This document shows positions 33,253 through 54,203 of a stretch of DNA of 64,000 nucleotides, one piece after another (position 1 is the first letter of the stretch; each line of letters opens with the position of its first letter). The stretch is from the NCBI GenBank assembly GCA_963804995.1, contig CAWDSK010000001.1:576001-640000 (forward strand), given 5' to 3'. Source of the DNA: an uncultured Acidobacteriota bacterium (GTDB taxonomy: Bacteria > Acidobacteriota > Terriglobia > UBA7540). Position numbers and translations under genes: made by a program. The notes under the pieces are model-generated. The model saw nothing but the letters and a program-made list of their open reading frames with translations. It searched no databases and had not been told where the DNA came from.

Positions 33253-33338
33253 ACGCGACAATTTTAGCCCTGATTATCGAGATGCGGATATGTCTTCGCC
33301 CCAGGACCCGTTCGGAGGCAGCGAGTTCGAGCCACTCC

Positions 33339-34724: not shown

Positions 34725-34734
34725 CTTTTCACCG

Positions 34735-36099
34735 CTACAAACCGTATTTCTTCATCCGGCGATAGAGGGCGCTTCGGCTCAGTCCCAGAGCGTCGGCGGC
34801 CGCGCTGACGTTTCCCTCATAGCGGGCCAGCGCTTTTTTGACCAGCAGGCACTCAACGTCTTCGAGACTCATCTCTTCCACATGTCCAACCCCCTCGCGG
34901 CCCGCCCGCAGGCCCAGGTCGCTCGAACGTACCGCATCGCCCTGGGCCATCAGAACCGCCCGTTCGACCGCGTGCTCGAGCTCACGGACATTGCCCGGCC
35001 AGGGGTATTCGAACAGCGCCTGCATTGCCGCGCTCTCAAAGCCTGACAGATGCTTTCGGTAGCGTTGCGCGAACTGGCGGAGGAAATAGTTCGCGAGCAG
35101 GGCCAGGTCTTCACGCCGCCCCCGCAAAGGTGGAAGCGCAATCTCAATAGTATTCAACCGGAAGAGCAGGTCTTCACGAAACCGTCCGGCGTGGATTTCC
35201 TGGGCGACGTCAGCGTTGGTCGCTGACAAGACGCGCACATCCACCCGCCGAGTCTTCGATGAGCCCACGCGCTCAAGTTCTCCCGTTTCGAGCACCCGCA
35301 GCAGCTTGGCTTGCAGATTTAACGGAACGTTGGCGATTTCGTCGAGGAATAGCGTCCCCCCGTCCGCGAGTTCGAACCGGCCCACGCGATCCGCTTTGGC
35401 GTCCGTAAAGGCGCCCTTGACGTGGCCGAACAACTCGCTTTCGAAGACGCCTTCGGAAAGGCCGCCTGCGTTCACAGTGACCATGGGCCGCGAAGCGCGT
35501 TCGGACAAGACGTGCAAACTTCGCGCCACCACTTCCTTGCCCGTGCCGTGCTCGCCGGTGATCAACACATTCGCATCGGAAGGACCGACGCGCCCGATCA
35601 GGTCGAGCACCGGCCGCATGGCCGGAGATTCCGCGATCAGGGTGGGCCGGCCTTCGGCTCGCAGCAGACGGTTTTCCGCTTCCAGGCGCTGCCCCTCGCG
35701 CAAGGCGCGGCTCAACTCCAATTGGGTTTTTAGAATCGACAGCAGGCGGGCATTTTCCCAGGGCTTCTGGATGAAATCGCGGGCCCCGCGGCGCATGGCC
35801 TCCACAGCGATTTCCACGCTGCCCCAGGCGGTCATCACCACCACGGGCAGCGTGCTGTCCATACTCTGCACGCGCGTTAGCAGGTCAAGCCCCTCCTGCC
35901 CGGAGGTAGTGTCTCGAGCGTAGTTCAGATCCATCAGCAGAAGGTCATAATCCGCCGCTTCGAGGAGGGCCAGAACCCCAGAGGGAGACGTAGCCGCCCG
36001 GGTCTCAAACCCTTCCGCCTTCAGCAATAGCCGCAGCGCCTCGATAACGTCAGCCTGGTCGTCGGCAATCAGGATTCGCGGCGGGTTTGTCGTCTTCAT
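34735..36099 (-). CDS. Sigma54-dependent response regulator
   Basis: Receiver domain, GEHGTGKE, GAFTDA, LFLDEI, WPGNVREL, Fis HTH. Confidence 0.93.
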   Translation of the reverse strand: MKTTNPPRILIADDQADVIEALRLLLKAEGFETRAATSPSGVLALLEAADYDLLLMDLNYARDTTSGQEGLDLLTRVQSMDSTLPVVVMTAWGSVEIAVEAMRRGARDFIQKPWENARLLSILKTQLELSRALREGQRLEAENRLLRAEGRPTLIAESPAMRPVLDLIGRVGPSDANVLITGEHGTGKEVVARSLHVLSERASRPMVTVNAGGLSEGVFESELFGHVKGAFTDAKADRVGRFELADGGTLFLDEIANVPLNLQAKLLRVLETGELERVGSSKTRRVDVRVLSATNADVAQEIHAGRFREDLLFRLNTIEIALPPLRGRREDLALLANYFLRQFAQRYRKHLSGFESAAMQALFEYPWPGNVRELEHAVERAVLMAQGDAVRSSDLGLRAGREGVGHVEEMSLEDVECLLVKKALARYEGNVSAAADALGLSRSALYRRMKKYGL

Positions 36100-36283
36100 G
36101 TGATTGGATTCCGCTCCGGCAGTTAGATGTGATGGCCCCACCAAACACCACCCTCGGCGGGAATTCTAGCACGTCCGCGCCCGTGGGGACCTGTCCCCTG
36201 GAGTTTTTGTAGTGCATTAGGGTGGGCAACGGCGTGAAATCCCTCTCCTCCGAAAAGGACAAAAGTACCTGCCTGATCCACCC

Positions 36284-36314
36284 TGTGACTTAAGTTACAT
36301 GCAAATGGTTTGCA
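36284..36314. promoter_or_regulatory. Adjacent CRP-like box and 7-1-7 Fur/Mur-like box upstream of feoAB
   Basis: TGTGA-CTTAAG-TTACA (36284-36299) followed by TGCAAAT-G-GTTTGCA (36300-36314). Confidence 0.45.
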
Positions 36315-36393
36315 ATTAGCTAGTTTCAGGGTGAGGAGTTTTTAAGCATTTTGGCCTTTTGTCTGGAACCTACCTTGCCCTAATGGGGTTGGT

Positions 36394-36651
36394 ATGCGAG
36401 ACACAGCGAACTTTGACTCACCCATGAACCTCTACCAAGCTGACGACCACGCCCACCTTAGGATTCTTTTAATTACGGGTGGTTGGGATGTGCGTCGCTC
36501 CTTCAACCAGATGGGCATCCAGCCGGGCGATCGCGTCCGGGTATTACGTCGTGCCCCTTTTGGCGGTCCGCTGATGATTGACAACCGCGGCACCCAAGTT
36601 GCGGTTGGTAAGCAACTGGCGGAAAAGATCCGCGTTGAAGTCCTGCCGTGA
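36394..36651 (+). CDS. feoA: Ferrous iron transport protein A
   Basis: MGIQPGDRVRVLRRAPFGGPL...VAVGKQLAEKIRV; GTGA overlap with feoB. Confidence 0.92.
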   Translation: MRDTANFDSPMNLYQADDHAHLRILLITGGWDVRRSFNQMGIQPGDRVRVLRRAPFGGPLMIDNRGTQVAVGKQLAEKIRVEVLP

Positions 36652-38669
36652 AGGTCGCACTGGTCGGCCAACCCAATTCAGGTAAGAGTACTCTTTTTAA
36701 TGCCGTGGCGGGATACCGCTCGCTAACCTCAAACTTTTCCGGCACCACGGTAGAGTACACGTACGGTGAGGCGCGGGTGAATGGCGCCGTATTGGAACTG
36801 GTAGACTTGCCAGGCCTTTATTCCCTCACGCCAACCTCTCCGGTAGAAGCTGTCAGCCGGGATTTTCTGCTCGCCGGTGGGTGGGACGTCATCGTCAATG
36901 TATTGGACGCCTCGCAACTGGCGCGCAGCCTGGAGCTGACCCTCGAAGTGCTGGACCTCGAAGCCCCGTTGGTCATTTGCCTGAACATGATGGACGAAGC
37001 CGTGCGCAAAGGTATGACGATTGATTCGCGCGCCTTGGCAATCGCCTTGGGAGTGCCGGTGGTGGAAGCGACCACGGCGCGGGGGCGCGGCATCATGGAA
37101 ACCTTTCGGACGGCGCAAGCGGTGGGTGCTGCCGGGCACAACCGTACGCGCGCCTTCATTTACGCAAAGGATGCGGAAGTGGTGGTCGAGCAACTGGCGG
37201 AGAAGATTGCCGGAGTCACACACGCGCATGGGTCGCCGGCCCTTCAGACGCACGAAGCATCGGCCTCGGCTGCCCACACACCCGAACAACTTTCTGCCGT
37301 CAGCGTTGCAGTGGCGGAAGCCGGCGGCAGCGAAGCGCCGGAATTTCCTCCCGCACGCTTCCGAGCCCTCCAGTGGGTGCAGAGTGATCCCCTCGAAACC
37401 CGGCGCGAGGCCCCGGACGTAGCGCCGGCGGTAGAATGGGCGCAAGCTGAGATCGCGGTGCGCACAGGCCAGCCGGCGGATGCGGCAATCTCCGCGGCGC
37501 GGCACGCTGCCTGCCTCACACTTTTTGAGCGCGTGGTGCGTGTGGCGCGGCCCCGCACCGATTGGCGCGAGAAGTTGGATCGTCTGGTCATGCATCCCTT
37601 CTGGGGTTACGTGGCTTTGCTTGGTGTCTTTCTGGGATTCTTCCGCCTGATATTCGACGTGGGCAAGCTGGGTGAGGCCCGCATCCTGGCGGTCTTCGAC
37701 CTGCTGGTGGCGACGCTCGCGCAGCACCTTGACCCGCAGAGCGCACTCTTCGCAGCCACGAAAGGCGCCGTGTTGGGGACGGCCGGGGCGGTAGCCATCG
37801 TGCTGCCCTACCTCCTGCCGTTTCTCGTGGGCTTGGCGATTCTTGAAGACATCGGTTACCTCTCGCGTGTCGGTTACCTGATGGACGCCGCGATGCATCG
37901 CCTGGGACTGCATGGCACGGCCACCCTGCCGATACTGGTGGGCTACGGATGCAGCGTACCGGCCGTGATGGCCACGCGCATCCTCACTTCCCGGCGTGAC
38001 CGCTTTATCGCGGCATTCCTGGCGGTGCTGGTGCCCTGCTCGGCGCGCATGACGGTGATCTTCGCGCTGGTGGGCTTCTATCTGGGGGCGAATTACGCTC
38101 TCGGCATCTACGCACTGAACATTGTGGTAGTAGCTCTCGCGGGACACGTGCTAGCGCGCCTCTGGCCGGAAATTTCACCCGGCATGCTGCTTGAAGTTCC
38201 CGCCTACCGAGTGCCTGCGCCGCGCGTGGTGGCGCTCAAAACCTGGTGGCGACTGCGGGAATTTGTTTTGGTGGCGTTTCCACTGCTGGTGGTGGGGAGC
38301 GTGTTGCTGAGTCTTGTGGATTTCTACGGCTGGCAACATGGCATCAATGCGGCGCTCTCACCGCTCACGGCGCTGCTGGGATTGCCACGCTCCGTGGGCC
38401 TGACGCTGATTTTCGGCGTGCTGCGCAAAGAACTGTCGCTCTTGATGCTAATGCAGGCGCTCGGCACAACCCATGTGCTGGGCGTCATGACCGCGGCGCA
38501 AATCCTGATCTTCACCCTCTTCGTAACTTTCTACCTGCCTTGCATGGCCACGCTCGCCTCCCTGCTGCGCGAACTCGGCTGGCGACTGACCCTCGCCGCG
38601 TCAACTGCACTGCTCGCACTGGCCATCGTCATCAGCCTCGCGGCGCGCGGGATACTGGCGCTTTTGTAG
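36648..38669 (+). CDS. feoB: Ferrous iron transport protein B
   Basis: GQPNSGKS, DLPGLYSL, NMMD, GYGCSVPA, VPCSAR, YLPC. Confidence 0.95.
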   Translation: MKVALVGQPNSGKSTLFNAVAGYRSLTSNFSGTTVEYTYGEARVNGAVLELVDLPGLYSLTPTSPVEAVSRDFLLAGGWDVIVNVLDASQLARSLELTLEVLDLEAPLVICLNMMDEAVRKGMTIDSRALAIALGVPVVEATTARGRGIMETFRTAQAVGAAGHNRTRAFIYAKDAEVVVEQLAEKIAGVTHAHGSPALQTHEASASAAHTPEQLSAVSVAVAEAGGSEAPEFPPARFRALQWVQSDPLETRREAPDVAPAVEWAQAEIAVRTGQPADAAISAARHAACLTLFERVVRVARPRTDWREKLDRLVMHPFWGYVALLGVFLGFFRLIFDVGKLGEARILAVFDLLVATLAQHLDPQSALFAATKGAVLGTAGAVAIVLPYLLPFLVGLAILEDIGYLSRVGYLMDAAMHRLGLHGTATLPILVGYGCSVPAVMATRILTSRRDRFIAAFLAVLVPCSARMTVIFALVGFYLGANYALGIYALNIVVVALAGHVLARLWPEISPGMLLEVPAYRVPAPRVVALKTWWRLREFVLVAFPLLVVGSVLLSLVDFYGWQHGINAALSPLTALLGLPRSVGLTLIFGVLRKELSLLMLMQALGTTHVLGVMTAAQILIFTLFVTFYLPCMATLASLLRELGWRLTLAASTALLALAIVISLAARGILALL

Positions 38670-38715: not shown

Positions 38716-39259
38716 GTAGCGCGGTCCCCCGTTTTTGGGGTCCGCGGTACTTCGTCACAATACATTCGCTCCATTGGCGCAGGAAGAGCCGCAGACCTCA
38801 ACGGCGGAGGTCTGCGCTACGTTTGCTCATGTGACTCCATCGTGTAGTGCACAATGCGGGTGTAGCGCGGTCCCCCGTTTTTGGGGTCCGCGGTACTTCG
38901 TCACAATACATTCGCTCCATTGGCGCAGGAAGAGCCGCAGACCTCAACGGCGGAGGTCTGCGCTACGTTTGCTCATGTGACTCCATCGTGTAGTGCACAA
39001 TGCGGGTGTAGCGCGGTCCCCCGTCTTTGGGGTCCGCGGCACTTCGTCACAATACATTCGCTCAATTGGCGCAGGAAGAACCGCAGACCTCAACGGCGGA
39101 GGTCTGCGCTACGTTTGCTCATGTGACTCCATCGTGTAGTGCACAATGCGGGTGTAGCGCGGTCCCCCGTCTTTGGGGTCCGCGGCACTTCGTCACAATA
39201 CATTCGCTCAAATGGCGCAGGAAGAACCGCAGACCTCAACGGCGGAGGTCTGCGCTACG
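38716..39259. repeat. 146-bp tandem array (~3.7 copies) of paired GTAG REP hairpins (BIME-like)
   Basis: Units start at 38716, 38862, 39008 and 39154; each has GTAGCGCGGTCCCCCG..GGGGTCCGCGG and an inverted CCGCAGACCTC..GAGGTCTGCGCTAC. Confidence 0.9.
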
Positions 39260-39639: not shown

Positions 39640-40173
39640 TTAAGGCTCATCGCGGGGCAATACCTGGGTGCAGGCCGGGCAGAATTCCGCGCGTTTCAGG
39701 TCGATGCGTTCGACGCCGTTTGAGGCGCTCATTACGCAGGTGTAATCGGAGCAATGGCGCAGCCCGTAGGTGTGGCCGAGCTCGTGGAGGGCTTCTTTCA
39801 GCAAGCGGTCGTGGAGAAGTTCGGGGTCGCTGGGTAGACCGTAGAACTCCTGGCGCAGTCGATGCGCGGAAACCAGGGCCCCGCCGTCCGACATCTGCGC
39901 TTCACCGAAGACAAAAGTCAGGACGGGGATGTAGAGGTCTACCTCGGTCACTCCCAGCACCTTCCAACTATCGCTGGGCGGCCTCTCCAGAATCTTCTTC
40001 AGGATCTCGGAAGAGTGGTATTGCTGGCGCAGGGAGTTGTAGGCGAACTCCGTCTCCAACCCATCCGGCTGGATGGAACACGCCACCTGCAACCGCCGCG
40101 TCAGGCCCTCGGCAAGAGGTTCCAGAAGCGCCCGGTCCACTTTTCCAATTGGCATCAGCGAGATGATTCTCAT
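39640..40173 (-). CDS. Archaemetzincin-family Zn metalloprotease (M54)
   Basis: HELGHTYGLRHC metzincin motif plus C..CVM...CPAC Cys site; FVFGEA; ATGA overlap with the regulator. Confidence 0.9.
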   Translation of the reverse strand: MRIISLMPIGKVDRALLEPLAEGLTRRLQVACSIQPDGLETEFAYNSLRQQYHSSEILKKILERPPSDSWKVLGVTEVDLYIPVLTFVFGEAQMSDGGALVSAHRLRQEFYGLPSDPELLHDRLLKEALHELGHTYGLRHCSDYTCVMSASNGVERIDLKRAEFCPACTQVLPRDEP

Positions 40174-41525
40174 GGCGCGGCCGGGATAGCCTTCCGGAAT
40201 CCGTATTTCTTGATCTTATTGTAGAGGGTGACGCGGTCGATGCCGAGCACTTTGGCGGTCCGCGTCTGGTTCCACTCACAGACCTCGAGCACGTGCAGGA
40301 TATGCCCGCGTTCTACGTCATCAAGCGCTAACCCCCCCTCAGGCGCGGGCGGCGTTGAGACCTGCAGGGGAAAATCCGCAGCCTGGATTTCCGGCTCGCG
40401 GCCAATCACCATGGCGCGTTCGATGGCGTTTTCCAGTTCCCGTACATTGCCGGGCCACTCGTATTTCATCATAAGGTCGAGCGCCGGCCGGCTAAGACTA
40501 GTGAAGCGTTTGTTCATGGCGCGCGAATACTTGTGCAGGAAATGATCGGCGAGTAGGGGGATATCCTCTTTGCGCTCGCGCAGGGGCGGTACCGTGATGC
40601 CGAAAACATCCAGGCGGTAATAGAGGTCGGGGCGGAAGGTGCCCTCTCTTACCAGGGTGGTCAGGTCCTTGTTGGTGGCAGCGACGGCACGAAAATCCAC
40701 CTTGATCGGCTGGTTGCCGCCCACGCGGGTGATCTCTTTTTCCTGGAGGACACGCAGCAAGTCGGTCTGGGTCTTCAGGCTGATGTCGGAAATCTCGTCG
40801 AGAAAAACCGTGCCACCCTCGGCGACCTCGAATTTGCCTTTCTTGCGGTACTGCGCGCCCGTGAACGCCCCCTTCTCATGCCCAAAGAGTTCGCTTTCGA
40901 GCAAGGTCTCCGTCAGCGCGCCACAATGGATGGTGACCATGGGCATGAAGCGGCGCGGGCTCAGGTTGTGGATGGCGCGCGCCACCAACTCTTTGCCGGT
41001 CCCGCTTTCCCCGTGAATCAGTACGGTGGTATCGGTGGGCGCCACAGTCCGGATGGCCTCCAGCACTTTCTGCATGCCGCGGCTTTGGCCGACCATCTCA
41101 ACGGCCTGAACTTCCTCCAGATTTTCGCGCAAGCGCAGGTTCTCTTCCTTCACGCGGCGATGGTCGAGGGCTTTGGAAACCGTGTGGGCCAGGTCATCCG
41201 GGTCGAACGGCTTCATGATGTAATCGTAGGCGCCGTCTTTGAGCGCCTGCACGGCAGTCTCAACCGAGGCATACCCGGTCATAATGATGACGATGATGTT
41301 AGGGTCGACCTCGCGAATCTTGCGGTGTAGCTCCAGGCCGTCCATGCCCGGCATCTTGATGTCTACCAGGGCCAGGTCCCAACGCTGGCGCGGCAGCTTC
41401 AAGAGCGCCTCGCGGGCGCTGGTGGCGGTATCCACACTGTAGCCCTCTTCTTCAAACCATTTTCCAAGCGATTCCCGCACGACACCTTCGTCGTCGACTA
41501 TCAGGATGCTGGCCTTTGGATTCAT
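40170..41525 (-). CDS. Sigma54-dependent response regulator (NtrC/AtoC type)
   Basis: AAGGAG RBS; receiver domain, GESGTGKE, GAFTGA, WPGNVREL, HTH. Confidence 0.95.
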   Translation of the reverse strand: MNPKASILIVDDEGVVRESLGKWFEEEGYSVDTATSAREALLKLPRQRWDLALVDIKMPGMDGLELHRKIREVDPNIIVIIMTGYASVETAVQALKDGAYDYIMKPFDPDDLAHTVSKALDHRRVKEENLRLRENLEEVQAVEMVGQSRGMQKVLEAIRTVAPTDTTVLIHGESGTGKELVARAIHNLSPRRFMPMVTIHCGALTETLLESELFGHEKGAFTGAQYRKKGKFEVAEGGTVFLDEISDISLKTQTDLLRVLQEKEITRVGGNQPIKVDFRAVAATNKDLTTLVREGTFRPDLYYRLDVFGITVPPLRERKEDIPLLADHFLHKYSRAMNKRFTSLSRPALDLMMKYEWPGNVRELENAIERAMVIGREPEIQAADFPLQVSTPPAPEGGLALDDVERGHILHVLEVCEWNQTRTAKVLGIDRVTLYNKIKKYGFRKAIPAAP

Positions 41526-41544
41526 TTTCTCTACTCCTTCAATT

Positions 41545-42008
41545 CGGGATACGGGATACGGGACACGGGATACGGAACCCGCGGTTCGCCTCAAGATTTC
41601 GCCTTCCGTATTCTCAACACCCCGATCAAACGATTAAGCATTTTCTCGATATCTTTAAACGGCTTCGAAACCGAACCAAACTCCTCTGAATTTAGAAAGT
41701 GTAAGTTGCACGCAACAATCAGGTGTGTCTCCAGTTCCATCAGTGACCCTCGCGCCACCGTCAGGAACTGAATGTATTCTCCCCTGGACCCTCTTCCCCA
41801 TCCTTCTGCGATATTAGCGGCGACCGAGGTCGTGGCCCTGCGGATCTGTGAAGTCAAGCCGTACCGTTCTGTGTCGGGGAAGTGAGCGGTTAATCTGTAG
41901 AGTTCGGTTGTAAGGGAAACAGACTTCTTCCAAACATCCAACTCCTTGTAGTTCTGAACCACAAATGCCCCCTACGCTCGTATCCCGTATCCCGTGTCCC
42001 GTGTCCCG
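41545..42008. repeat. Inverted heptamer arrays bracketing a four-helix-bundle gene
   Basis: (CGGGAYA)n at 41545-41575 and the reverse-complement (TRTCCCG)n at 41979-42008. Confidence 0.85.
41591..41962 (-). CDS. Four helix bundle protein ('23S rRNA IVS protein' family)
   Basis: YKELDVWKKS, FPDTERYGLTSQIRRA, ANIAEGWGR, ARGSLMELETHL. Confidence 0.92.
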   Translation of the reverse strand: MVQNYKELDVWKKSVSLTTELYRLTAHFPDTERYGLTSQIRRATTSVAANIAEGWGRGSRGEYIQFLTVARGSLMELETHLIVACNLHFLNSEEFGSVSKPFKDIEKMLNRLIGVLRIRKAKS

Positions 42009-42012
42009 GCTT

Positions 42013-43626
42013 TCACGCCGCGGCGCCGATGTTTACCGGCGGCTCCTCCGGCAGGAGGACGGTGAACCGCGTCCCCTTCTGCGCCGTAGAAGCCACCTCG
42101 ATGTTTCCTCCGTGCTGCTGGATGATGCCCAGGGCAATAGCCAGGCCCAGACCCGTCCCTTGGCCTTCTTCCTTGGTCGTGAAAAAAGGCTCGAAGATGT
42201 GCGAAAGGACCTCCGGGGGAATGCCCGGCCCTTCATCGCTTACCACGACCGAGCCCAAGCGTCGCCCCGGGTCGAAGGTGCTTTCGATAACCAGCCGCCC
42301 GCCCTGCGGCATGGCCTCGATCCCGTTCATCAGGATTGCCAATAACGCTTGCTGAACTTGTCCCGAGTCGAAATAGAGGGCCGGCAGGTCGGCTGCGAGT
42401 CTCTTCTCCAACTCGATGTTCTGCAAAGTCATTTGATGTCCTACCAAAAGTAGACAGCGTTCGATGATGGCATTCAGATCGTTCTTCTGCGGATTAATGG
42501 GATTCTGCCGGGCGAAGGTGAGCAGGTTTTTGACGATACTGCCGCAGCGCCGGCTCTCTCCCTCGATGATATGCAAGTAGCTTTTGGCCTCGCCCAGACG
42601 TTGGTCGTTGCTGAAGCCCTTGTCGGCCATGCGCGAAATCAGCTTGCTGTAAGTCAGGATGCCGGCCAGGGGATTATTGATCTCGTGTGCGACCACTGCT
42701 GCCAACTTCCCGAGTGACGCCATCTTCTCCGACTGGGTCAGGCTGCGATAGGCGCGCTCGAGCTCCTCCGTCTTCCGGCGCACCCGGTCCTCGAGCGTCT
42801 GAGTCCACTGCCGGTTTTCCGCCTGTGCCTTCTTCAGTTCTTGCGTCATTTGGTTAAAGGAAACGGCCAGGCTACCGATCTCGTCCTGGCTTGTTTCCGG
42901 CAGAAGATAATCCAGGTCGCCCTGTGCCACCGCGCGGGTGCCTTCCGTCAGCCGGCGTACGGGTTTATGAACCGTGAACCAGATCAGCCAGGCTGAGAAC
43001 AGGCTCACCATCAGGATGGAGGCGATGGTAAAGACCACCAACCGCCGCTGGTGCTGGGCCACGGCAAGGTCAGCGGCGGCCAGCGAGAGGTTTGTGTCAA
43101 GCACGCCCAGTACCTGGCTGCTGTCGGTGTGCGCGTGGCAAGCGGCGTTCGAGCAATCCGCCTCATTTTCGATGGGCCGGATCAGCCCCAGCACGCGGGT
43201 GCCATCCTGCGCGGTGTAGATGCGCATCCTGTCCGGCCGGTCGAGCCGGGCCAGCGGCTGCGCCTGCGCGTGACAGGCGTAACAGGCTTCCGCTTTCTTA
43301 TCCACAAACTTGCCCACCTCTTTCGCGTCCGTGGAAAAGCTGATTTGCCCTTCCTTATTAAAAATGCGGATGCGGCTGATGCCGTTCTCGTGCCCGATGG
43401 TGTTGATGATGTGGAACACGTCCTCGCGCTGGTTGCGCAACATCGAGTAGCGAATGCTGCGGCGGATAGTGTCACTGATGCGGTCGGCGCTCTGGAAGAT
43501 AATCTCCTGCTGTGATTTCCGCCAGGTGCGCAGGTTCCAGTACCCGTAAAGGCCAAAGAGAAGCGCCACCCCGCCCACCGCGCAGGCCGTCAGCTTGATC
43601 GCCAGACTGTGAGTTACACTAGTCAT
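42013..43626 (-). CDS. Membrane histidine kinase with periplasmic heme-c-type motifs, HAMP and HisKA/HATPase domains
   Basis: TM-periplasmic (CYACH, CSNAACH)-TM, HAMP, AHEINNPL, DEGPG, GTGLGL. Confidence 0.92.
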   Translation of the reverse strand: MTSVTHSLAIKLTACAVGGVALLFGLYGYWNLRTWRKSQQEIIFQSADRISDTIRRSIRYSMLRNQREDVFHIINTIGHENGISRIRIFNKEGQISFSTDAKEVGKFVDKKAEACYACHAQAQPLARLDRPDRMRIYTAQDGTRVLGLIRPIENEADCSNAACHAHTDSSQVLGVLDTNLSLAAADLAVAQHQRRLVVFTIASILMVSLFSAWLIWFTVHKPVRRLTEGTRAVAQGDLDYLLPETSQDEIGSLAVSFNQMTQELKKAQAENRQWTQTLEDRVRRKTEELERAYRSLTQSEKMASLGKLAAVVAHEINNPLAGILTYSKLISRMADKGFSNDQRLGEAKSYLHIIEGESRRCGSIVKNLLTFARQNPINPQKNDLNAIIERCLLLVGHQMTLQNIELEKRLAADLPALYFDSGQVQQALLAILMNGIEAMPQGGRLVIESTFDPGRRLGSVVVSDEGPGIPPEVLSHIFEPFFTTKEEGQGTGLGLAIALGIIQQHGGNIEVASTAQKGTRFTVLLPEEPPVNIGAAA

Positions 43627-43866
43627 TCAGATCCCTCGGCACACGGGATACGGGACACGGTATACGGGACATGGGAAACGGGATGTGGGGCTCAGGTTAC
43701 CGAGCATGTGACTCTCAATTTGGAATTGTGGACCCATCACTCTCCGGATCTGAGAAGTCAGGCCGTATCGCTCCGTATCTGGTAATCGCGAAGTTAATCT
43801 GTAAAGATCCGTAGTAAGGGCAATTGCCTTCTTCCAAACATCGAGCTCTTTGTTGTCGTGAACCAC
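43627..43866 (-). pseudogene. Truncated four helix bundle paralog within inverted heptamer arrays
   Basis: First ~42 aa nearly identical to 41591-41962 (KELDVWKK..LPDTERYGLTSQIRR), then similarity ends; arrays at 43641-43684 and 43895-43962. Confidence 0.8.
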
Positions 43867-43874
43867 AATTCCCC

Positions 43875-45074
43875 TCAGCTCCGGGCTGCAAGTTCCGTGT
43901 CCCGTATCCCGTTTCCCGTACCCCGTATCCCGTATCCCGTCTCCCGTGCCCCGTGTCCCGTGCTTGGCTCCATCACATTCAGGTAGCGGACCGCCAAACT
44001 GAACAGCAGGAACCCCACGCCCACGATCGACAGCGTTACCGCCACCTCCGTCCAGCGGGGGAAGTAGTGCACGCCGGAAGAAGCCGCCAAGCCTGTAATC
44101 GAGACGTTCAAGCGGTTCAGAATGAAGCCTGTGATCACCAGCACCGCGACGGCGAAAAGGCTCTCGCGATTTTCACGAACCTTGCGGAAAAGAAGCATCG
44201 GCAAGGGAATGAGCACGCCCAGCGTAACTTCTAAGAGGAAGAGGACCGTCTCGGTGGAAGGTTCGCGCAGGTGAGAGAGCGCCCCGCGCCCCCAGAGGTC
44301 CTGAAATTTCAACAGGCCGTAAATCGCCAGCACCACGGCCATCGCCCGACCCAACACTTCGAGCAAGGGCATCTCAATCTCCCGGCCAAAGGCGCGTGAA
44401 CTCAGGTTGGATTCAAATATCACCATCGCCATTCCCACGCCCACCGCGGAAATGAAAAAGAACACGGGGAGCAGGGGCGAATACCAATAGGGATGCAGCT
44501 TGGTGGGCACGATCAGGAACAGGCTGCCCAGCGACAACTGGTGCAAAGTCGAGAGCATCACGCCGGCAATCACCAGCGGAATCGTCGCGGCTTTAACCAG
44601 GCGCAGTGGGGTGTGCAGGTGAAAGCGTTCCAGAACCGCGGGAGAGAATTCCAGCGCCAGCACCGTGAGGTAAAGCATCACGCACCAGGCAACCTCAAAC
44701 ATCACGGAGTGCGGATTCCACATCACCAGGGGATGCCAGATGTTGTAAGGCTTGCCCAGGTCGAAGAGCAGTGCCACGGCCACCAGGGCGTAACCCAGAA
44801 ATGCGGTGAGAATCGAAGGGCGAAGCACAGCGTGGAAGCGCTCGATGTGGAAGACGTAAACGATCGCCGCCAGGGTGAAGCCGCCTGCCGCCAAGCCCAC
44901 GCCGCAAAGCACGTCGAAACCAATCCAGATCCCCCAAGGAAACTGATCCGACAGGTTCGTGGCGGCGCCCAACCCTTTGACGAAGCGCAGCACTGCGGAA
45001 TAGAAACCCGCAGCCAGGATTAGAACGAGGACTATCCGCCAGAAAGTGAGCTTAGGAAATTTTGAGAAGGTCAT
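43875..45074 (-). CDS. NrfD/PsrC-family integral membrane subunit (HybB/HmcC-like)
   Basis: GLGAATNLSDQFPWGIWIGFDVLCGVGLAAGGF, DLGKPYNIWHP, SVMFEVAWC, LSTLHQ; ~10 TMs. Confidence 0.9.
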   Translation of the reverse strand: MTFSKFPKLTFWRIVLVLILAAGFYSAVLRFVKGLGAATNLSDQFPWGIWIGFDVLCGVGLAAGGFTLAAIVYVFHIERFHAVLRPSILTAFLGYALVAVALLFDLGKPYNIWHPLVMWNPHSVMFEVAWCVMLYLTVLALEFSPAVLERFHLHTPLRLVKAATIPLVIAGVMLSTLHQLSLGSLFLIVPTKLHPYWYSPLLPVFFFISAVGVGMAMVIFESNLSSRAFGREIEMPLLEVLGRAMAVVLAIYGLLKFQDLWGRGALSHLREPSTETVLFLLEVTLGVLIPLPMLLFRKVRENRESLFAVAVLVITGFILNRLNVSITGLAASSGVHYFPRWTEVAVTLSIVGVGFLLFSLAVRYLNVMEPSTGHGARETGYGIRGTGNGIRDTELAARS

Positions 45075-45093
45075 AATCAAACCCCGTAAATGC

Positions 45094-45274
45094 TGTCCGT
45101 TGTCAGTGGTCCGTGGTCCGTTGTCCAGCCGCCACTCGATCCATTCTCCATCGTAGGGGGCCGGGTGGTTGCCAGGAACCCCTGGAGACTGCCCCCACCG
45201 TCGAACCTTTAGCAACGGACAACGGACCACGGGCGACTGACGACTGTTCCCTGTCACCTGTTCCCTGTCACCTG
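45094..45274. repeat. Inverted heptamer arrays with no enclosed gene
   Basis: tgtccgttgtcagtggtccgtggtccgttgtcc versus caacggacaacggaccacgggcgactgacgac, plus cctgtca/cctgttc units. Confidence 0.75.
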
Positions 45275-46075
45275 CTCTTCCGCCTTCGCCACCTCTTCGC
45301 GGCGGTTGGTAATCCACCAGATCCCGCCCAGAAGCACCCCACCCAGGGTGACAAGGCTGGGGATCTTGGAGAGCACCCGATAGGTCAACATCGGCATGGG
45401 GTCTGTGGGCAGGTTGGCGGGCAAGCCCAGTTGCTCAAAAGGCACCGCCGAGAGATAGAGCACCGAGGTGCCCCCCACTTCATCCTTGCCGTAAATGTGC
45501 TGGAAGTATTTCGACGGCTCTTCGCGCAAACGCTTCTCGGCCTCTTTCAGCAGATCGTTGCGCTCGCCAAAAATGCCGGCCTGCACCGGGCAGACCTCTG
45601 TGCAGGCGGGCTGCTGGCCTTTTGCCTGTCGAGGCGCGCACTGGGTGCACTTCCTCACCTTGGGCAGGAGGGCTTTCCATTCATAGCGGGGAATGCTGAA
45701 CGGGCAGGCCATCATGCAGTACCGGCAGCCCATGCACTTGTCCGCGTCGTAAACTACCGGTCCTGCAGCCGTCTTGTGCAGCGCGCCTACGGGACAAACT
45801 GACGCGCAAGTAGGTTCCTGGCAATGCATGCAGAATCGCCGCACGAAAATACTGCCATGCGTCTGGACCACGTTGAGCGTGTCTGCGGACAATTTGCCGT
45901 CCACCTCGCCGTGGCTTTGGGCGAAGGTAACAAGGGCCTCCTCGGTCAAGGGCCCTGCTGGAAGGTCCTTAGCACCGGACTCGTCGAGGGGAAGATAGTT
46001 CACGATCTTACAGGCGGTAGCGCAGGCTCCACATCCGATGCATTTGGTGGTATCGACGAGAATGGATTTGCTCAT
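45254..46075 (-). CDS. 4x[4Fe-4S] electron-transfer subunit (HybA/FdnH-like), C-terminal TM anchor
   Basis: CIGCGACATAC, CMHCQEPTCASVCP, CMGCRYCMMACP, CTQC..CTEVCP, YGKDEVGGTSVLYL; no Tat signal; GGAG RBS. Confidence 0.9.
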   Translation of the reverse strand: MSKSILVDTTKCIGCGACATACKIVNYLPLDESGAKDLPAGPLTEEALVTFAQSHGEVDGKLSADTLNVVQTHGSIFVRRFCMHCQEPTCASVCPVGALHKTAAGPVVYDADKCMGCRYCMMACPFSIPRYEWKALLPKVRKCTQCAPRQAKGQQPACTEVCPVQAGIFGERNDLLKEAEKRLREEPSKYFQHIYGKDEVGGTSVLYLSAVPFEQLGLPANLPTDPMPMLTYRVLSKIPSLVTLGGVLLGGIWWITNRREEVAKAEEQVTGNR

Positions 46076-46147
46076 TTTTTAAACATCTCCGTAGAGCGAC
46101 AGATTGGACATTCTGCCTGTGACAAAAGTCCGACCCATTAAATGTAT

Positions 46148-46165
46148 AAGCACGCCATATGCCGA
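46148..46165 (-). promoter_or_regulatory. Putative sigma54 -24/-12 promoter for the hybA-like operon
   Basis: Minus strand TCGGCATATGGCGTGCTT = GG-N10-GC, ~75 nt upstream of the start. Confidence 0.5.
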
Positions 46166-46509
46166 GAAATTCAGCAGTTGAGGCTCACAATAGGCCTTAT
46201 TGTCCGAGATACCTGCAGCTCAATTGCAACCAGATTCCACTGCTGTGAAATTACGCAATCGAGACCGTTCTGTGATTGGGAAAATTCGGGGGGGTGGTGC
46301 GAGCAGAGCTTGCAGATTATTCTTCCCCTTGGCGCCTGGTCCATGGGTCGGATCTTGGACGAGGAGAGAAATCACGCAATGGGTGCAGGTCTTTTAATGG
46401 GAGTCACCCGATATTAGCAGTTACAAGGTTTTGTTAAGAGTGGTGGGCTATCCACTATGCGAAACCGCTCCTACGATGCCAAGAATAATGACATGCTTCT
46501 CAATCGCCA

Positions 46510-47202
46510 TTACGGCTGGTGAAGGAAATTCGCCTCGAAAGCGCTCCAGGCCGTCGGGCCAAGTTCACTGAGGCAACCGACCGCAGGAAGTCCACCATCC
46601 TGACTTGTGACACCGAGGGCTAGGTCTGGCGAGACTTGCGTGAAGATGAACTCGCGAAAGCGCGCAAATTCGTTCTCGAGCCACATCACGGCTTGCTCAC
46701 CGAAGCGTACGTTCGGGGAGGTCTCCTCCACGCGGGTGGGGTTAAGGTAACAGATCCAGCCGCTTCCATAGGGGTCGGAGCTCACGAGCTCCGGTTGATT
46801 TACGAGGCGGCTGTTAACGGCCATCACCCGACCGGTCATGGCCGATGAAATGGTGACAGCGTGGCCATTGCGCTCCAGGCGAAAGAGGGGCTGACCGGCA
46901 CTCACCTGGTCGCCCACTTTGGGCAGAACAATCCGGCGGACCGCGCCAACCGCGCGCACAAGCAAAGCGTCAGCGCCCATTTCCAACCCGCCCGTAGGAT
47001 CGGGTCGGAGCCAGGTATGCTGGCTGGCGAGGTGAACGCCTTCCGGCACTTGGCACAACGCCTCAAGCTCATACGCCCTAGCCTGGGCTCCGGGACTCCT
47101 CGCCAGCGCCTGGTGTGCCACCCGCCACGCCTGCCACTTCACGATTCCCAAGTCCGTCAGAACCAGGCAAACAAACATCAGAGCCACAAAAATCGCGACC
47201 AT
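46510..47202 (-). CDS. Membrane-anchored GcvH-like protein, lipoyl Lys absent
   Basis: N-terminal TM; HTWL, LPKVGDQV, MTGRVMAVN, SDPYGSGWI, QDGG; lipoyl loop reads LERNGH. Confidence 0.8.
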   Translation of the reverse strand: MVAIFVALMFVCLVLTDLGIVKWQAWRVAHQALARSPGAQARAYELEALCQVPEGVHLASQHTWLRPDPTGGLEMGADALLVRAVGAVRRIVLPKVGDQVSAGQPLFRLERNGHAVTISSAMTGRVMAVNSRLVNQPELVSSDPYGSGWICYLNPTRVEETSPNVRFGEQAVMWLENEFARFREFIFTQVSPDLALGVTSQDGGLPAVGCLSELGPTAWSAFEANFLHQP

Positions 47203-47261
47203 AATCATCCTCCAGAGACATTTCAAGCGGGGCTCGTCCGAGCCACGTACCGAGCGTGACC

Positions 47262-47939
47262 TTAGCCGAGCAGCATTTCTTCTACGAACTTCTCCCACTG
47301 GAATTCAGGGACCAGACTTAGCACGTCCCCAATGGCGTGACCGCCGTCTTGCAGGCGAGCCTCCGAACCTGGACTAATGCGCGTGTGGAGATCGGCGACG
47401 GATTCCTCCATCCAGCGCTGTGCCACCCTCCCGTGCAACAGGTTTTTCAGATTGCCTTCCGCCGCCGGCGCGTTCACCGCCACCAGCCAACCGACGCCGT
47501 AAGGGTCCTGATGAGCGAGCGCGGGATTGCGCAGGACTTCCGGGTTTACGTCCACCACTTCGCCCTCGATGGGCGAGAGCATTTGAAAGCGATGACTGCC
47601 CCGGCCAAGCGTCCATCCCTTTTCGCCCTGACGCAGCCAGTGGCCGCGCGCGGGCAAATCGATTTGATCAATCTGGCCCACCAGCCGCGCCGCGAAATCA
47701 TCCAACCCGATGCGCACCACCTGGCGCGATTCTCTCATCGCCCAAGCGTGCCCGGGATGATAGGAAAGATGGGCGGGGACCTTGAAACCTCCCACGACGT
47801 TCATCGAAAAGGCCAGCTCTTCGCCCCGCACTTCCTCAGCCGCATTCTTTACTTCCATCTGCTGCGGCCGGCGCCTTTGGAGGTAGTAATCCACCGTGAC
47901 GAAGACTATGAATGTTGCGAGCATCAATCCAACAACCAT
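47262..47939 (-). CDS. Membrane-anchored GcvH-like protein, lipoyl Lys absent
   Basis: N-terminal TM; YHPGHAWA, RIGLDDFA, SPIEGEVVDVN, DPYGVGWL, QDGG; lipoyl loop reads LGRGSH; GAGG RBS. Confidence 0.85.
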   Translation of the reverse strand: MVVGLMLATFIVFVTVDYYLQRRRPQQMEVKNAAEEVRGEELAFSMNVVGGFKVPAHLSYHPGHAWAMRESRQVVRIGLDDFAARLVGQIDQIDLPARGHWLRQGEKGWTLGRGSHRFQMLSPIEGEVVDVNPEVLRNPALAHQDPYGVGWLVAVNAPAAEGNLKNLLHGRVAQRWMEESVADLHTRISPGSEARLQDGGHAIGDVLSLVPEFQWEKFVEEMLLG

Positions 47940-48004
47940 TTAGCACCTCAGGGGGTTCTGCTCCCTTGCTACGGAGCGAAGCACCCGAATCTCACGATGG
48001 ATAA

Positions 48005-48022
48005 TTGCAGACCACTGGCCAA
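48005..48022 (-). promoter_or_regulatory. Putative sigma54 -24/-12 promoter for the gcvH-like pair
   Basis: Minus strand TTGGCCAGTGGTCTGCAA = GG-N10-GC, ~65 nt upstream of the start. Confidence 0.6.
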
Positions 48023-48135
48023 AGGCAGCAGCTTTACAATAGTGAATAGTCCACCAATCCCCCCTAAAATGCAGCAGATAGAGCATCTCAGGAATTTAAT
48101 TGGAAATGGACATATTTGCTGAAAACTAGCCTAGT

Positions 48136-48255
48136 TGTTGCGGTTTTCAATAGCGGCACTTCGACGGAAGGTCGCATACTGTCGGAACAGTCTTTGTTTT
48201 CATGTTGATATAGGGCTGTTGTCTTGCACAACATAGGCCGGTGAATAGTTCAACA
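48136..48255. promoter_or_regulatory. Putative upstream activator sites TGTTG-N7-CAACA
   Basis: Perfect copy at 48217-48233; near copies at 48136-48152 and 48239-48255. Confidence 0.45.
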
Positions 48256-50424: not shown

Positions 50425-51099
50425 CTAGGTACCCGGCACGTTAGGCGGAAGGAAATCGAGCAGCAGATGGAATATCTCAATTTGACCCAAGGTGATAGGC
50501 TCCCTACCGTGGCGTGACATCTGGAGTGGCCCAAGATCCTGAAGGCCATCTGCCTCAGCCAACCTCGTGCCCAGTGCCACCCTCAACACCTCGGTTCTCT
50601 CCGCAAAACCAGTTCTTAATCGGCCTAACCATTCCAAGGCTGTATCCGTTTGCACATATCCAAGCATTCCGCCAACAGCCTCCTTGGCGGCGTACCGGCC
50701 GACAATGAAACAGCCCAAACCGTCCTCTCCGAAGTACTTTTCAACTGAGTTCGGCCGGTACAGCCGCTTGGCTTCGATGTGAAATCGAGGCCTTTTGCCC
50801 TGGCCCGAGAGGCGCACGAATTCAATGTCCACCCGAGGGCGGCTGCGGCCCAGCTTGCCCGATACATTTTGGGGAGGATCGTCATGTACGTCGAAGAGTT
50901 GCATCCAAGCTTCAGCGTCCTCACTCTCTATTACCTCTCGCACGCCGCGAACGAGTTCGCCCGTAATGCTGGTCTCCTCCGCCTGGCTAAGGTCCGCAGT
51001 CTTGATCAGTTCATAGCCGCGCAGAACCAAAATGTGGCAATTTCGAATGAACGCCAAGCGATACAGGATGGCGCGATCTGGGTGCGGGTCCAAGGGCAT
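50425..51099 (-). CDS. Putative PD-(D/E)xK-like nuclease
   Basis: ETSITGEL, RVDIEF..FHIEAKRL, GMLGYVQ; start overlaps the upstream stop. Confidence 0.6.
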   Translation of the reverse strand: MPLDPHPDRAILYRLAFIRNCHILVLRGYELIKTADLSQAEETSITGELVRGVREVIESEDAEAWMQLFDVHDDPPQNVSGKLGRSRPRVDIEFVRLSGQGKRPRFHIEAKRLYRPNSVEKYFGEDGLGCFIVGRYAAKEAVGGMLGYVQTDTALEWLGRLRTGFAERTEVLRVALGTRLAEADGLQDLGPLQMSRHGREPITLGQIEIFHLLLDFLPPNVPGT

Positions 51100-54000
51100 C
51101 AGCCGACAACCCTCTCATTCTCTTCCGGGTGCGACTGGATGGATTCCGCGATGATGTCGCCCGCATCCTGCATGGCTTGAGTTTGGGTCCAATCCAGGCG
51201 ATGTAGCGGTTTCAACATGTACGTTTTGGACGGTTCGTATACGCGGAGGTTGCGGTGAAAGTAGAGCCATTGGGCGCGCTTCTCGATCAATTGGGTCTGA
51301 GCTGCCTCAAATTCATGTGCGCCTTCATCAGTTGCTTTCATAACCCGGACCGGCAAGCGCCCCGTGGCCCCGCTCACGATCTCAATAACGGTCAGACCCG
51401 AACCGCCAGCATAAAAAACATCGACGCGGTGACGGATGCCAGTTTTCTCGCCCACGAATCCATCAAGTTCATCGCGAAGTGTTCCAGCGTACGATTTCAA
51501 TTCCTCCACCTTCGGAGGATCAATTGCTTCCTTTCCGATTTTGCCCTGATTCAAGGAAAGGCGAACGTGAACTAGATCATGGATCGCGGCTCTGGCTCAA
51601 CTACCGAGCCTCAAGGAATCGAAAGTTAAATCGTTCAACTCACGAATCAAGTCTGGCCGTTCGAAGCTAGCCTTCCGACCAATGGCCTTCGCGATGTTGG
51701 AATAAAGAGATGTCCAATCGCCCAGCAAATTCGGATCCGCAAATGGGATCGGCAGGGTCCGTAGCGTCTTGAGCGAAAAGATCGTCTTTTGTATCCCGGC
51801 TTGGGACGTGCTAAGAAACTGGTGGTATATTGCGAAATCAGAGTTGAGGTAGAGGGCGAGCGCCTTTAAAAGGGGTTCGTTACCCCGGGGTGAAATGACA
51901 CCAACCTGACCGGGAGGTACGACAATAGCGTGCTCAGTGTACACCGCGAAGGTCCTTGACTCTCCCACCAAAACGTGTGGAGGCTGAGAAACCCTAAACG
52001 GTCTCGCGAACCTACCGCGCCTTACAAACGACTGGCTGGCCGACAGAGGCTGAAGTAACTCAATTGGGAAATCGAATAAGTACCTGCAGTTCTTGAGGGG
52101 CTCGACCGATAAGAGTGGCTTCCCAACAAGTTCGGGATGAAACTTGGCCCCCTCCCTTTTGGCTTGATCCTTGTTTCTTGTTTCAAGCCCCTGCGAAGCC
52201 AAGAGGATTCCTTCTTTTTCCAGTTGTCCGAAGGTCTGGAAGTGACGTTGCACAGCGCCAAGCACCTTCGCGTCGATTGACGAGCCCCACATTGCCAGCT
52301 TCCAAGGCAGCGAGCTTCCGTCGATGACCTCAGAATAAGCTAGTTCTCGCAGTTCGCTCGTGTTGACGATTAGGTTCCAGACAGGAACTCGCTTCCCAGT
52401 CCTCCATTGGGCTGCTGGCTGAGTAGCAACAAACGGGGAATACACCTCGACTGCCTCTGGGCCGCATTGAAGGTCTAGTTGTTGGGGTTTCGGGGAATAG
52501 AAAAATGCTGCCGCGGGAAGTCTGGCCCGGCCTGCAAATAATACTTCTGCGAGGTTCGCGAAATTGGCCACGGACCATAGTTGATTTTTCTGCAAAAAAG
52601 CCGCGCGAAAGGCTTTCGACTCGTACTTGAACAATGTCATGGCAGGAAGCAGCAAGCCAACGACAGCATCTGCCGCAACCAGATCAGAAGCCCGCCACGC
52701 GAATGCTTCGGCCATCTGATTTCCGCCAATCGGGTGCTCGGCCCCGTTGCGTTGCATCCAATTCATTGCTGGCTTGTCGACATTATCGAGCCGATTGGGA
52801 TTTAATTCTTTCCAGGGAGGATTACCCACGATCCAATCGAACCGCTTCCGTTGTATCAAATGCTGCCACTCACCACTTTCCGTGAAGGTATCGGCGTGGA
52901 AAATGTTCTGATTTCTCAGAGGTGGGAGCTTGAACTTTGTCTTTGTCAGGTCTGGCGGGTCAACGTACTCAAGCAGAGTGAGCGACAGGCTCAACTCCGC
53001 AATCTGGCAGGCATCCTCGTCAAGGTCGATCCCAAAAATGTGGTGCGTAAGAAGACTCCCGAGTTCAGCGGGGCGAAGCTGCTTTTGGGGGCACGCTGCC
53101 AAGCGGCGCTCAATCAGCTTTCTGTAACATTGGACCAGAAAAGCACCCGATCCACACGCCGGGTCCAGCACCCTCATTCCGGGCGTCAAAGGCTTGTGTG
53201 AGTCCAGCCGATCCACCATGAAGTTCACGACCGGCACTGGCGTGTAGTAAGCCCCTCGGGCGGCCCCTTCTGATCTTGCTGACGGGTGGTGGGTGGCGTG
53301 GAGGAACTGCTCGTAGATGACTGACAGGGTTTCAATGGGGATCAGCGAAAAATCGTAGATGTCGAAAAGAGGCAGTTGGCCCTCGGCGGTTCCCCCATGG
53401 AACACGGAAGCCACTCTCCGCAGCCGCTCTGCTCCAAACTCTTGAATCTTCGTACGTGAGAGCGGGAACACTGAGCCATTCAGCCATTCGTCAATACGCT
53501 GCACTAGTTCCGCAAATATGCTAAGCCGCGCATGCTGACCGAAAGCCTCATCATAGGAAATGTCCCACTCTTTCAGTTTAGCGTCGGAAAGTATATTTCG
53601 TTGCCGCAAATAGCGTAGGTATACGAACTTCCCAATCATGGAGTGCGAGAGGGCACGATTCTCAACGCCGTTTTCGCATAGCCAGTCATCCAGAGCGCGG
53701 AGATTCTTGAGGAGCCTCCAGTCAACCCTCGACTCCGGCGTCACCTGACTGCCCCATTCCTTCCATACAGCCCCCGAGTCGACAGCGGCGCCTCGAATCG
53801 ATGCAAGCTGAGCCGCGACTTGTCCAAAATCATTGATGGCACGAAGCGCGCCAAGGTTTGGGTCGTCTCCAGCATGATCGTCATAGCGGAACCCCGGGTA
53901 AAGACGCACCCATCCGGGACTCACGACTAGCAAAAAGGGGACGACGTTTTGGTTCCAGACTTTCCTGTGGATTTCCCGCGCTTGCTGTTCCGAATCAGCC

Positions 54001-54203
54001 TGGCAAACATAAACGACTGGAACATCTGATTGGGAAGGGTCGTAGGCGCTGCCGCGAAGTGTGTAGACCCCCTTGAGGTCACACGCCTGTTGCGCCATTC
54101 GGAGGATGTGGCCGTAGTTGGGGTCAAGTCTAAGAGCGTCACCGGAACGATAGTTCGGCGAATCGGTGTATTGGAGAGCACCCAGGACGTCCCCAAGAAT
54201 CAT
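51099..54203 (-). pseudogene. Large N6-adenine DNA methyltransferase (type IIG/Eco57I-like) interrupted by one in-frame TGA at 51597-51599
   Basis: GAYYTP, VLDPACGSGAFL, FGIDLD, IVGNPPW; the frame continues after the TGA (LRLGS*ARAAIHDLVHVRLSLNQGK) to 51099. Confidence 0.8.

Follow-up and report, generated by a model that had tools for sequence, protein, structure and literature searches.

In Geobacter sulfurreducens, the sigma54 activator BccR (GSU0598) induces a quinone oxidoreductase operon, CbcBA, at low potential according to the account cited (10.1101/2021.04.15.440034), and a similar logic is proposed here for an operon of an uncultured Acidobacteriota bacterium. The operon lies on the minus strand of a 64,000-nucleotide stretch of DNA (assembly GCA_963804995.1, contig CAWDSK010000001.1, positions 576,001 to 640,000), hereafter the window, and encodes two lipoyl-less proteins of the GcvH fold (H1 and H2), an iron–sulfur (Fe-S) protein, an NrfD-family membrane protein, a sensor kinase with two haem-c-type motifs, an NtrC-type activator, and an archaemetzincin (M54) protease. 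Its most likely role is to turn anaerobic electron transfer on in response to a drop in oxygen or redox potential. By analogy, BccR/CbcBA would be the closest working model, and GSU0599, the neighbour of BccR, is described as having two CX2-4CH motifs like the window kinase (PMC8396549, PMC3831638). CbcBA is, however, a b/c cytochrome pair, unlike the Fe-S/NrfD pair here, and the likeness is drawn from the descriptions in the papers rather than from sequence comparison; in their available portions these accounts mention neither a GcvH-fold nor a protease gene, nor do they establish GSU0599 as the kinase of BccR.

The individual components also resemble described proteins. The Hmc complex of Desulfovibrio (HmcB/HmcC) and HybA/HybB of Escherichia coli likewise combine a four-cluster Fe-S protein carrying a C-terminal tail with a ten-helix NrfD protein, but compared with Hmc and hydrogenase-2 the window operon has no HmcA/D/E/F or HybO/C and no twin-arginine translocation (Tat) leader, and it adds H proteins, a kinase, and a protease. 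The sensor shares its Cache fold, the place of its haem motif, and the position of the axial Met with GSU0582 and GSU0935 (3B47, 3B42), from which it differs by Cx4CH spacing (49 of 52 sensors), a second invariant CxxCH, and a kinase instead of a chemoreceptor output. H1 and H2 have the fold of GcvH and GcvH-L but lack the lipoyl lysine and carry an N-terminal membrane helix and a C-terminal DGG extension, and the M54 protein, which exceeds the NCBIfam cut-off and has intact zinc motifs, differs from the archaemetzincin AmzA by its coupling to a sigma54 activator (72 of 78 loci). The parts all come from known folds and families and the overall logic has precedent; what is strange is the lipoate-free H family and an Fe-S protein without a carrier.

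Layout and Conservation of the Operon

A reading of the window from its sequence and open reading frames (ORFs) alone, here called the sequence-only reading, had proposed a redox-signalling system of seven co-oriented genes. All seven are present in the order it gave, as are the ATGA overlap of the regulator stop with the M54 start (40170-40173) and two GG-N10-GC motifs (48006-48022 and 46149-46165). The run in fact comprises eight genes on the minus strand, since a four-helix-bundle gene inserted at 41591-41962 had been overlooked together with a decayed second copy. The genes and sites of the operon proper are as follows.

48218-48232, minus strand: candidate enhancer 1 of the H1 promoter (GTTG-N7-CAAC), a block of columns conserved in an alignment of 19 upstream regions
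48137-48151, minus strand: candidate enhancer 2 of the H1 promoter, a GTTG-N7-CAAC element in aligned upstream regions of relatives
48006-48022, minus strand: sigma54 -24/-12 box of H1, 83 nt before the gene, its position kept in close relatives; rpoN is present in the genome
47262-47939, minus strand: H1, 225 aa; N-terminal membrane helix, lipoyl-less GcvH fold, and DGG helical extension; PF01597 at 67 bits, under the GcvH cut-offs
46510-47202, minus strand: H2, 230 aa; paralogous to H1 (domain identity 27%), its membrane helix predicted to pack on NrfD
46245-46259, minus strand: candidate enhancer of the Fe-S promoter, a GTTG-N7-CAAC element in aligned upstream regions of relatives
46149-46165, minus strand: sigma54 -24/-12 box of the Fe-S gene, 90 nt before it
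45254-46075, minus strand: Fe-S gene, 273 aa; HmcB/HybA-like protein with four [4Fe-4S] sets, 16 Cys, and a C-terminal anchor, without a Tat leader
43875-45074, minus strand: NrfD gene, 399 aa; HmcC/HybB-like NrfD-family membrane protein of about 10 helices
42013-43626, minus strand: sensor kinase, 537 aa; predicted sCache_heme domain with CxxCH (115), Cx4CH (158), and invariant Met62, then HAMP, HisKA (His314), and HATPase
40170-41525, minus strand: NtrC-type sigma54 activator, 451 aa; Asp55, GAFTGA, HTH_8
39640-40173, minus strand: archaemetzincin (M54), 177 aa; intact HExxHxxGxxH (motif at residue 130) and Cys4 site; NF033823 at 168.7 bits against a cut-off of 145

A profile of the H proteins has matches in 97 of 301 Acidobacteriota genomes, the weakest of which include ordinary GcvH. 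Sixty regions, selected with high scores favoured, 28 earlier loci, and the window gave 89 loci, and after 23 near a contig or locus edge had been set aside, 66 remained; related genomes are non-independent samples in these counts. The full set of Fe-S, NrfD, kinase, activator, and protease genes occurs in 31 of the 66. H genes with only the kinase, activator, and protease are found in 10, one of which (L098) has a Qrc-type module below thresholds; Fe-S and NrfD with a kinase and a receiver-H fusion, without activator or protease, in nine; H genes alone in 10; and H genes with the activator and protease beside a kinase with [FeFe]-hydrogenase-like input in two. The kinase is present in 41 of 81 genomes of the family, and the closest relatives belong to the Terriglobia. 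In a second phylum (locus L038, Krumholzibacteriia) the sensor occurs in 23 of 61 genomes, and 15 regions from that phylum contain sensor, activator, and protease throughout, an H gene in 14, a leaderless Fe-S/NrfD pair in eight, and a Qrc-like pattern in six. Sensor homologues also occur in Zixibacteria, Syntrophobacteria, Marinimicrobia, and Gemmatimonadetes. A metagenome scan was queried with one kinase and favours relatives of that kinase. The gene order, on whose conservation the sequence-only reading had made its proposal depend, is therefore kept in two phyla, throughout Acidobacteriota and in one other. The literature searched, which was mostly open-access, yielded no account of this widely conserved bacterial operon, which is apparently undescribed.

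Promoters, Activator, and Protease

Sigma54 boxes above the score cut-off precede the first H gene in 38 of 64 upstream regions and the Fe-S gene in 30 of 59 (9% and 12% in shuffles, respectively), and their position is kept in close relatives. Two conserved copies of the GTTG-N7-CAAC element lie ahead of H1 and one ahead of the Fe-S gene. With a matrix derived from relatives, the H1 promoter comes out at the top of 4589 candidate sites, a ranking that is partly circular. The activator has the features of its class (receiver Asp, GAFTGA motif, and helix-turn-helix), and the genome encodes sigma54 (rpoN). With the same enhancer before both internal sigma54 promoters, the autoregulated circuit that had been suggested is plausible.

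The best single enhancer site found with the matrix (G000:C5:769764, score 15.7) lies before an operon for an FdhF-like protein and a group-4 hydrogenase; the next two, at 15.6 and 15.2, look like chance. Enhancer and sigma54 box are aligned in four of four copies from the same genus (15.7, 12.4, 12.4, and 5.1) and not in four from other genera, so that this operon as a further target of the activator is a lead only. It is of sigma54 type, lies at G000:C5:753000-769800 (L099) in the genome of the window, and consists of genes for the FdhF-like protein, an AsrA/B-like pair, and the group-4 hydrogenase, with the candidate enhancer.

In the M54 protein all ligands of the motif HExxHxxGxxHCx4CxMx17CxxC are present, with a spacer of 16 instead of 17, and the catalytic Glu is kept; the full core is found in 74 of 78 homologues and HExxH in the other four. 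The zinc motifs are intact, and proteolytic activity is predicted from them. The gene adjoins that of the activator in 72 of the 78 loci. A lead on an archaemetzincin sulfur relay (PMC13325395) did not apply.

Expression under Anoxia

Genes 1840-1835 of the metagenome-assembled genome CO124 have the same order as the window operon and, by eye, the same features. In the data of the study that measured its transcripts (PMC10564751), five of the six orthologous genes are significantly higher under anoxia (log2 changes of -5.9, -5.0, -2.5, -4.2, and -4.2; adjusted P ≤0.004; negative values denote anoxic, as for dsrP), the protease changes by -1.2, which is not significant, and both flanking genes are unchanged. 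The NrfD gene is labelled ‘hydB’ there. In a second, Qrc-type copy in CO124, the kinase, one H gene, and NrfD change in the same direction, and three of its 13 genes (numbered 42-54) are significant. Anoxic induction of the orthologous operon in a published transcriptome bears out the earlier suggestion of a redox-linked system, and places the operon in a facultative sulfate reducer in which it rises under anoxia.

The Sensor Kinase

The periplasmic domain of the kinase has a Cache fold, as its structure model matches Cache domains and its profile matches 3b42 (E 1e-7) and 3b47 (E 1e-5); PF11845 was absent from the Pfam scan. It carries two haem-c-type motifs, and 52 of 52 sensors share the Cys residues of both and a Met without variation. 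Motif 2 and the invariant Met align with the haem site and the ‘MM’ (axial Met) of GSU0935 and GSU0582, which are described as redox-linked spin and ligand switches with CX2-4CH as the haem signature of such sensors (PMC8396549); spacing of this second motif is Cx4CH in 49, Cx2CH in two, and Cx3CH in one of the 52. The kinase thus has two such motifs, not one, and the CxxCH that the sequence-only reading noted is the extra one. Sensors with two motifs have been noted before (PMC3831638, PMC8396549). Cytochrome c maturation genes are present in the genome (PF01578, four matches). The signal of this predicted sCache_heme domain, with its two predicted haem sites, may be either potential or a gas.

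In two loci the activator and protease stay the same, but the place of the haem kinase next to them is taken by a histidine kinase with an [FeFe]-hydrogenase-like input (L076:4928-6958 and L089:15730-17790).

The Fe-S Protein and NrfD

The best NCBIfam matches of the Fe-S/NrfD pair are HmcB (280 bits, cut-off 420) and HmcC (330 bits, cut-off 550), followed by HybA (224) and HybB (304), all below cut-off. No chain among solved structures matches the NrfD profile at E 0.001. The Fe-S protein has four [4Fe-4S] Cys sets, with 16 Cys invariant in 51 of 51 sequences, and a C-terminal anchor; no Tat leader was found in any upstream frame. Thirteen of 60 homologues have a twin-arginine leader (eight by pattern, five by eye), and twelve Tat-bearing rows form one group in the tree (91/100 support, unstarred). 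The other 47, the window's included, are leaderless and span many families, and all homologues keep at least 16 Cys. Tat-type proteins are mostly accompanied by a cytochrome of 3–5 haems, and some leaderless types also have a multihaem cytochrome, either as a separate gene or fused to NrfD; the window's clade has no cytochrome gene in the operon, and the HmcA cytochrome and HmcD-F genes were not found in the cluster. Because the charge bias of NrfD is alike in Tat and leaderless types, its docking face for the Fe-S protein should be periplasmic, and a leaderless Fe-S protein would need a carrier. The charge bias speaks against an inverted topology of NrfD, as do fusions in which a cytochrome domain follows one additional helix.

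At L093:11361-14654, NrfD is fused to a 14-haem cytochrome region.

The Lipoyl-Less H Proteins

H1 and H2 are lipoyl-less, as had been read from the sequence: each has a His where the lipoyl lysine would stand, and the [ED]S-x-K motif occurs in 0 of 103 family members, nine of which have Lys at that column. The H fold is confirmed by a model of H1 whose pLDDT (predicted local distance difference test) is 93 and which matches 1dxm (Z 19.7, root-mean-square deviation 1.4, 131 residues aligned) and 5a35 (Z 12.3). Both proteins have an N-terminal membrane helix and a C-terminal helical extension with the DGG motif, and they score 60–73 bits on TIGR00527/PRK01202, below the GcvH threshold of 116–117. 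A role in glycine cleavage or as a lipoate carrier is rejected, given the missing lysine and a separate, canonical GcvH on another contig of the same genome.

The family is large (1130 clusters at 50% identity match it at E up to 1e-30). A fast tree of modest support puts H1 and H2 in distinct clades and the receiver-H fusions on the side of H2. Look-alikes of H2 cluster with Bacteroidota and Ignavibacteriota. Other members have Cys-rich domains, receiver-domain fusions, or fusions to HoxU/NuoG-like Fe-S proteins beside NuoE/F-like genes; because relatives carry such Cys-rich domains and HoxU/NuoG-like fusions, the H domain is placed, by prediction, in the cytoplasm. The receiver-H fusions and the Cys-rich H proteins adjacent to kinases link the fold to signalling.

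A three-chain model of NrfD, the Fe-S protein, and H2 scored 0.75 in three runs, against 0.00 for the best of three controls with unrelated proteins, with at least 82% of contacts common to the runs and partner pLDDT of at least 73; the mark used for such scores is reached by 116 of 157 solved pairs and two of 215 mismatched pairs. Residues 1-21 of H2 contact NrfD helices 8-9, which would put the N-terminus of H2 at the periplasmic end of NrfD, and the model supports binding of H2 to NrfD. In the Qrc and alternative complex III (ACIII) complexes, accessory subunits pack their helices against NrfD-family proteins. In L012 and L014, Fe-S and NrfD have gone from the locus together with loss or decay of H2, and H1 is retained. 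The suggestion that the GcvH-fold proteins are adaptors gains support from the complex model for H2.

Among the fusions, a HoxU/NuoG-like Fe-S protein, a Cys-rich segment, and a lipoyl-less H domain are joined beside NuoE/F-like genes at L074:6010-7389, L083:9724-11034, and L089:9746-11029. A small Cys-rich protein (L083:13301-13813, L089:13375-13740), the L083 copy of which has no Pfam match, also occurs N-terminally in some H proteins.

Proposed Mechanism and Alternative Explanations

We propose a self-amplifying sigma54 circuit, turned on under anoxia or low potential and physically tied to a quinone-linked electron wire, and we judge the probability of this reading to be evenly balanced. 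The periplasmic two-haem sCache domain of the kinase would, by homology, change state with the redox potential or with nitric oxide (NO) or carbon monoxide (CO). The kinase would then phosphorylate the activator, as is established for these families, and the activator, bound to the observed GTTG-N7-CAAC sites, would drive both internal promoters and possibly the formate-hydrogenlyase-like operon elsewhere. NrfD and the Fe-S protein would shuttle electrons between menaquinol and a periplasmic haem acceptor, probably the small multihaem cytochrome in relatives that encode one. Since this lineage has no cytochrome in the operon, the extra haem of the kinase is the nearest candidate acceptor here, and the wire would then be both output and input. 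The model and the pattern of gene losses suggest that H2 is an accessory subunit with its helix on NrfD and its lipoate-free domain facing the cytoplasm for docking or regulation, and that H1 is more likely on the kinase side. The cytoplasmic protease may, judging from its adjacency, modulate or reset the circuit.

Several points weigh against this proposal. No direct link from the wire to the kinase input is found among the results, H genes with Fe-S and NrfD but no nearby kinase occur in four of the 66 loci, and in G379, a genome 95% complete, the kinase is present and neither Fe-S nor NrfD gives a match. The arrival of the Fe-S protein in the periplasm is unexplained, as it lacks a Tat leader and its own genome revealed no carrier. 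The window NrfD has Leu (44535-44537) in place of the Ser of the HQS motif, which 47 of 48 aligned sequences retain, either by mutation or by assembly error. The modelled interface of H2 with NrfD is a single hydrophobic helix, which the unrelated controls possibly lack. The transcriptome compares one oxic with one anoxic time point in technical replicates (PMC10564751), the CO124 counts are low, many genes rise under anoxia, and orthology rests on gene order and inspection by eye. Lastly, a signalling-fused sCache_heme protein is described in a 2026 preprint as behaving as an NO sensor in vitro (PMC12889525).

The relay of quinone-pool state from the Fe-S/NrfD pair to the kinase, as originally envisaged, was not borne out: the pair has its own promoter, frequently takes a multihaem-cytochrome or Qrc-type form, and can be swapped for HoxEFU-like modules, so that it may instead be a regulated output. 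A bolder version can be offered only tentatively, in which a complex reads the quinone pool through an NrfD/Fe-S wire ending on the two-haem Cache kinase, lipoate-free GcvH-fold adaptors forming a new family plug Hmc-like, Qrc-like, or HoxEFU-like machines into one activator-protease core, and the Fe-S protein is periplasmic without a known Tat carrier.

It is likewise possible, though doubtful, that the pair is output only, the kinase sensing NO, CO, or periplasmic potential by itself, Fe-S/NrfD forming an Hmc/Cbc-like conduit to periplasmic cytochromes whose genes lie inside or outside the operon, and the H proteins being structural or assembly subunits. The sigma54 promoter and enhancer that the Fe-S gene has of its own, the many relatives with a gene for a small multihaem cytochrome or with NrfD fused to a cytochrome, close NrfD homologues elsewhere in three of three genomes of family f23 with an NrfD-less kinase locus, NO binding by sCache_heme (PMC12889525), and the BccR/CbcBA precedent (10.1101/2021.04.15.440034) all point the same way. 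Yet in the window's clade the module stays closely associated with the kinase and has no cytochrome gene (the Fe-S gene is present in 25 of 29 genus genomes), and receiver-H fusions and kinase-adjacent Cys-rich H proteins connect the H fold with signalling.

An orphan enzyme arm, in which a catalytic subunit encoded elsewhere (of an [FeFe] or [NiFe] hydrogenase, or of formate dehydrogenase) would carry the leaderless Fe-S protein along the Tat route, is unlikely. It has a published parallel in a leaderless C-tailed Fe-S protein and HybB-like pair behind a Tat-bearing [FeFe] hydrogenase (PMC10924467), and the periplasmic docking face indicated by the equal NrfD charge bias would suit it. The own genome (92% complete), however, has no PF02906 and no PF14720, and only hydrogenases of cytoplasmic type, complex I, and the FdhF-like protein; HybO/HybC partners are absent from the operon, and the large subunits in the genome are cytoplasmic types. 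Fourteen of the 25 Fe-S-positive genomes of the genus, some of them 96–98% complete, lack all of PF14720, PF02906, and FDH-N alpha. A Pfam scan of 105 neighbouring ORFs, most from 168 candidates and limited to ORFs of up to 900 aa on the same strand and within 2.6 kb, returned one small subunit (L095) and neither a molybdopterin nor an [NiFe] large subunit, and a fixed neighbouring catalytic subunit is rejected. Inspection by eye then picked out large-subunit-like ORFs close to L074, L083, and L095, and L098 has a QrcB-like gene; these hydrogenase or QrcB-like genes beside a few distant copies speak for the orphan arm. Among 67 Tat-like leaders in the own genome none was hydrogenase- or molybdoenzyme-like by eye, in a scan that is incomplete, as its pattern missed an ActB-like protein. 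The sequence-only reading had remarked on the missing catalytic partner, and had allowed that homologous clusters might routinely include one that was lost or relocated here; no such partner is fixed in the conserved operon or found in the rest of the assembly, and its presence is not the rule among homologous clusters.

At G000:C9:185203-188234, ActB of an ACIII locus is seemingly split into two overlapping ORFs.

Decay of the wire here to a relic that has lost Tat leader and cytochrome and is inactive or cytoplasm-facing, leaving only the two-component pair of importance, is very improbable: the Ser-to-Leu change in NrfD, the four-helix-bundle insertions, and frameshift-like breaks or losses in L012, L014, L022, L030, and L035 speak for it, but leaderless homologues with their full complement of Cys are spread over many families, and the leaderless CO124 copy is transcribed under anoxia.

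The sensing of redox potential by anaerobes and facultative soil bacteria is largely open, and the proposed circuit would offer a testable device that is common in Acidobacteriota. It is also the first functional context found for bacterial archaemetzincins and for a large family misannotated as ‘glycine cleavage H protein’. The labels ‘hydB/hybB’ and ‘gcvH’ on such genes do not indicate hydrogenase-2 or glycine cleavage.

Inserted Elements and Neighbouring Genes

The four-helix-bundle genes are predicted to be insertions that interrupt the operon, because a close homologue stands at the same place in only two of 28 related loci.

41591-41962, minus strand: four-helix-bundle gene (23S_rRNA_IVP) between kinase and regulator; PF05635 at 127 bits; outside the conserved core
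about 43630-43874, minus strand: decayed four-helix-bundle gene between inverted heptamer repeats, 77% identical over 133 nt to the intact copy

Arrays of inverted heptamer repeats at 41545-42008, 43637-43961, and 45095-45244 flank the intact gene, its remnant, and an empty site between the Fe-S and NrfD genes, and these repeat-flanked units look like intervening elements that insert between genes. A similar-looking ORF is found inside the Hox-like operon of the same genome (G000:C3:962358-962750).

A tandem repeat occupies 38716-39259, in the interval from feoB to the protease gene; its 146-bp unit, which contains palindromes, is present in 3.7 copies (98% matches). Just downstream of the operon, 32548-38669 encodes a Crp/Fnr-type regulator, a second kinase/sigma54 pair, and feoAB, which are not conserved beside the operon in relatives. 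On its other side, 50425-54392 holds an N6-methyltransferase gene (931 aa) and two downstream ORFs, one without a Pfam match, possibly a restriction-modification or defence island.

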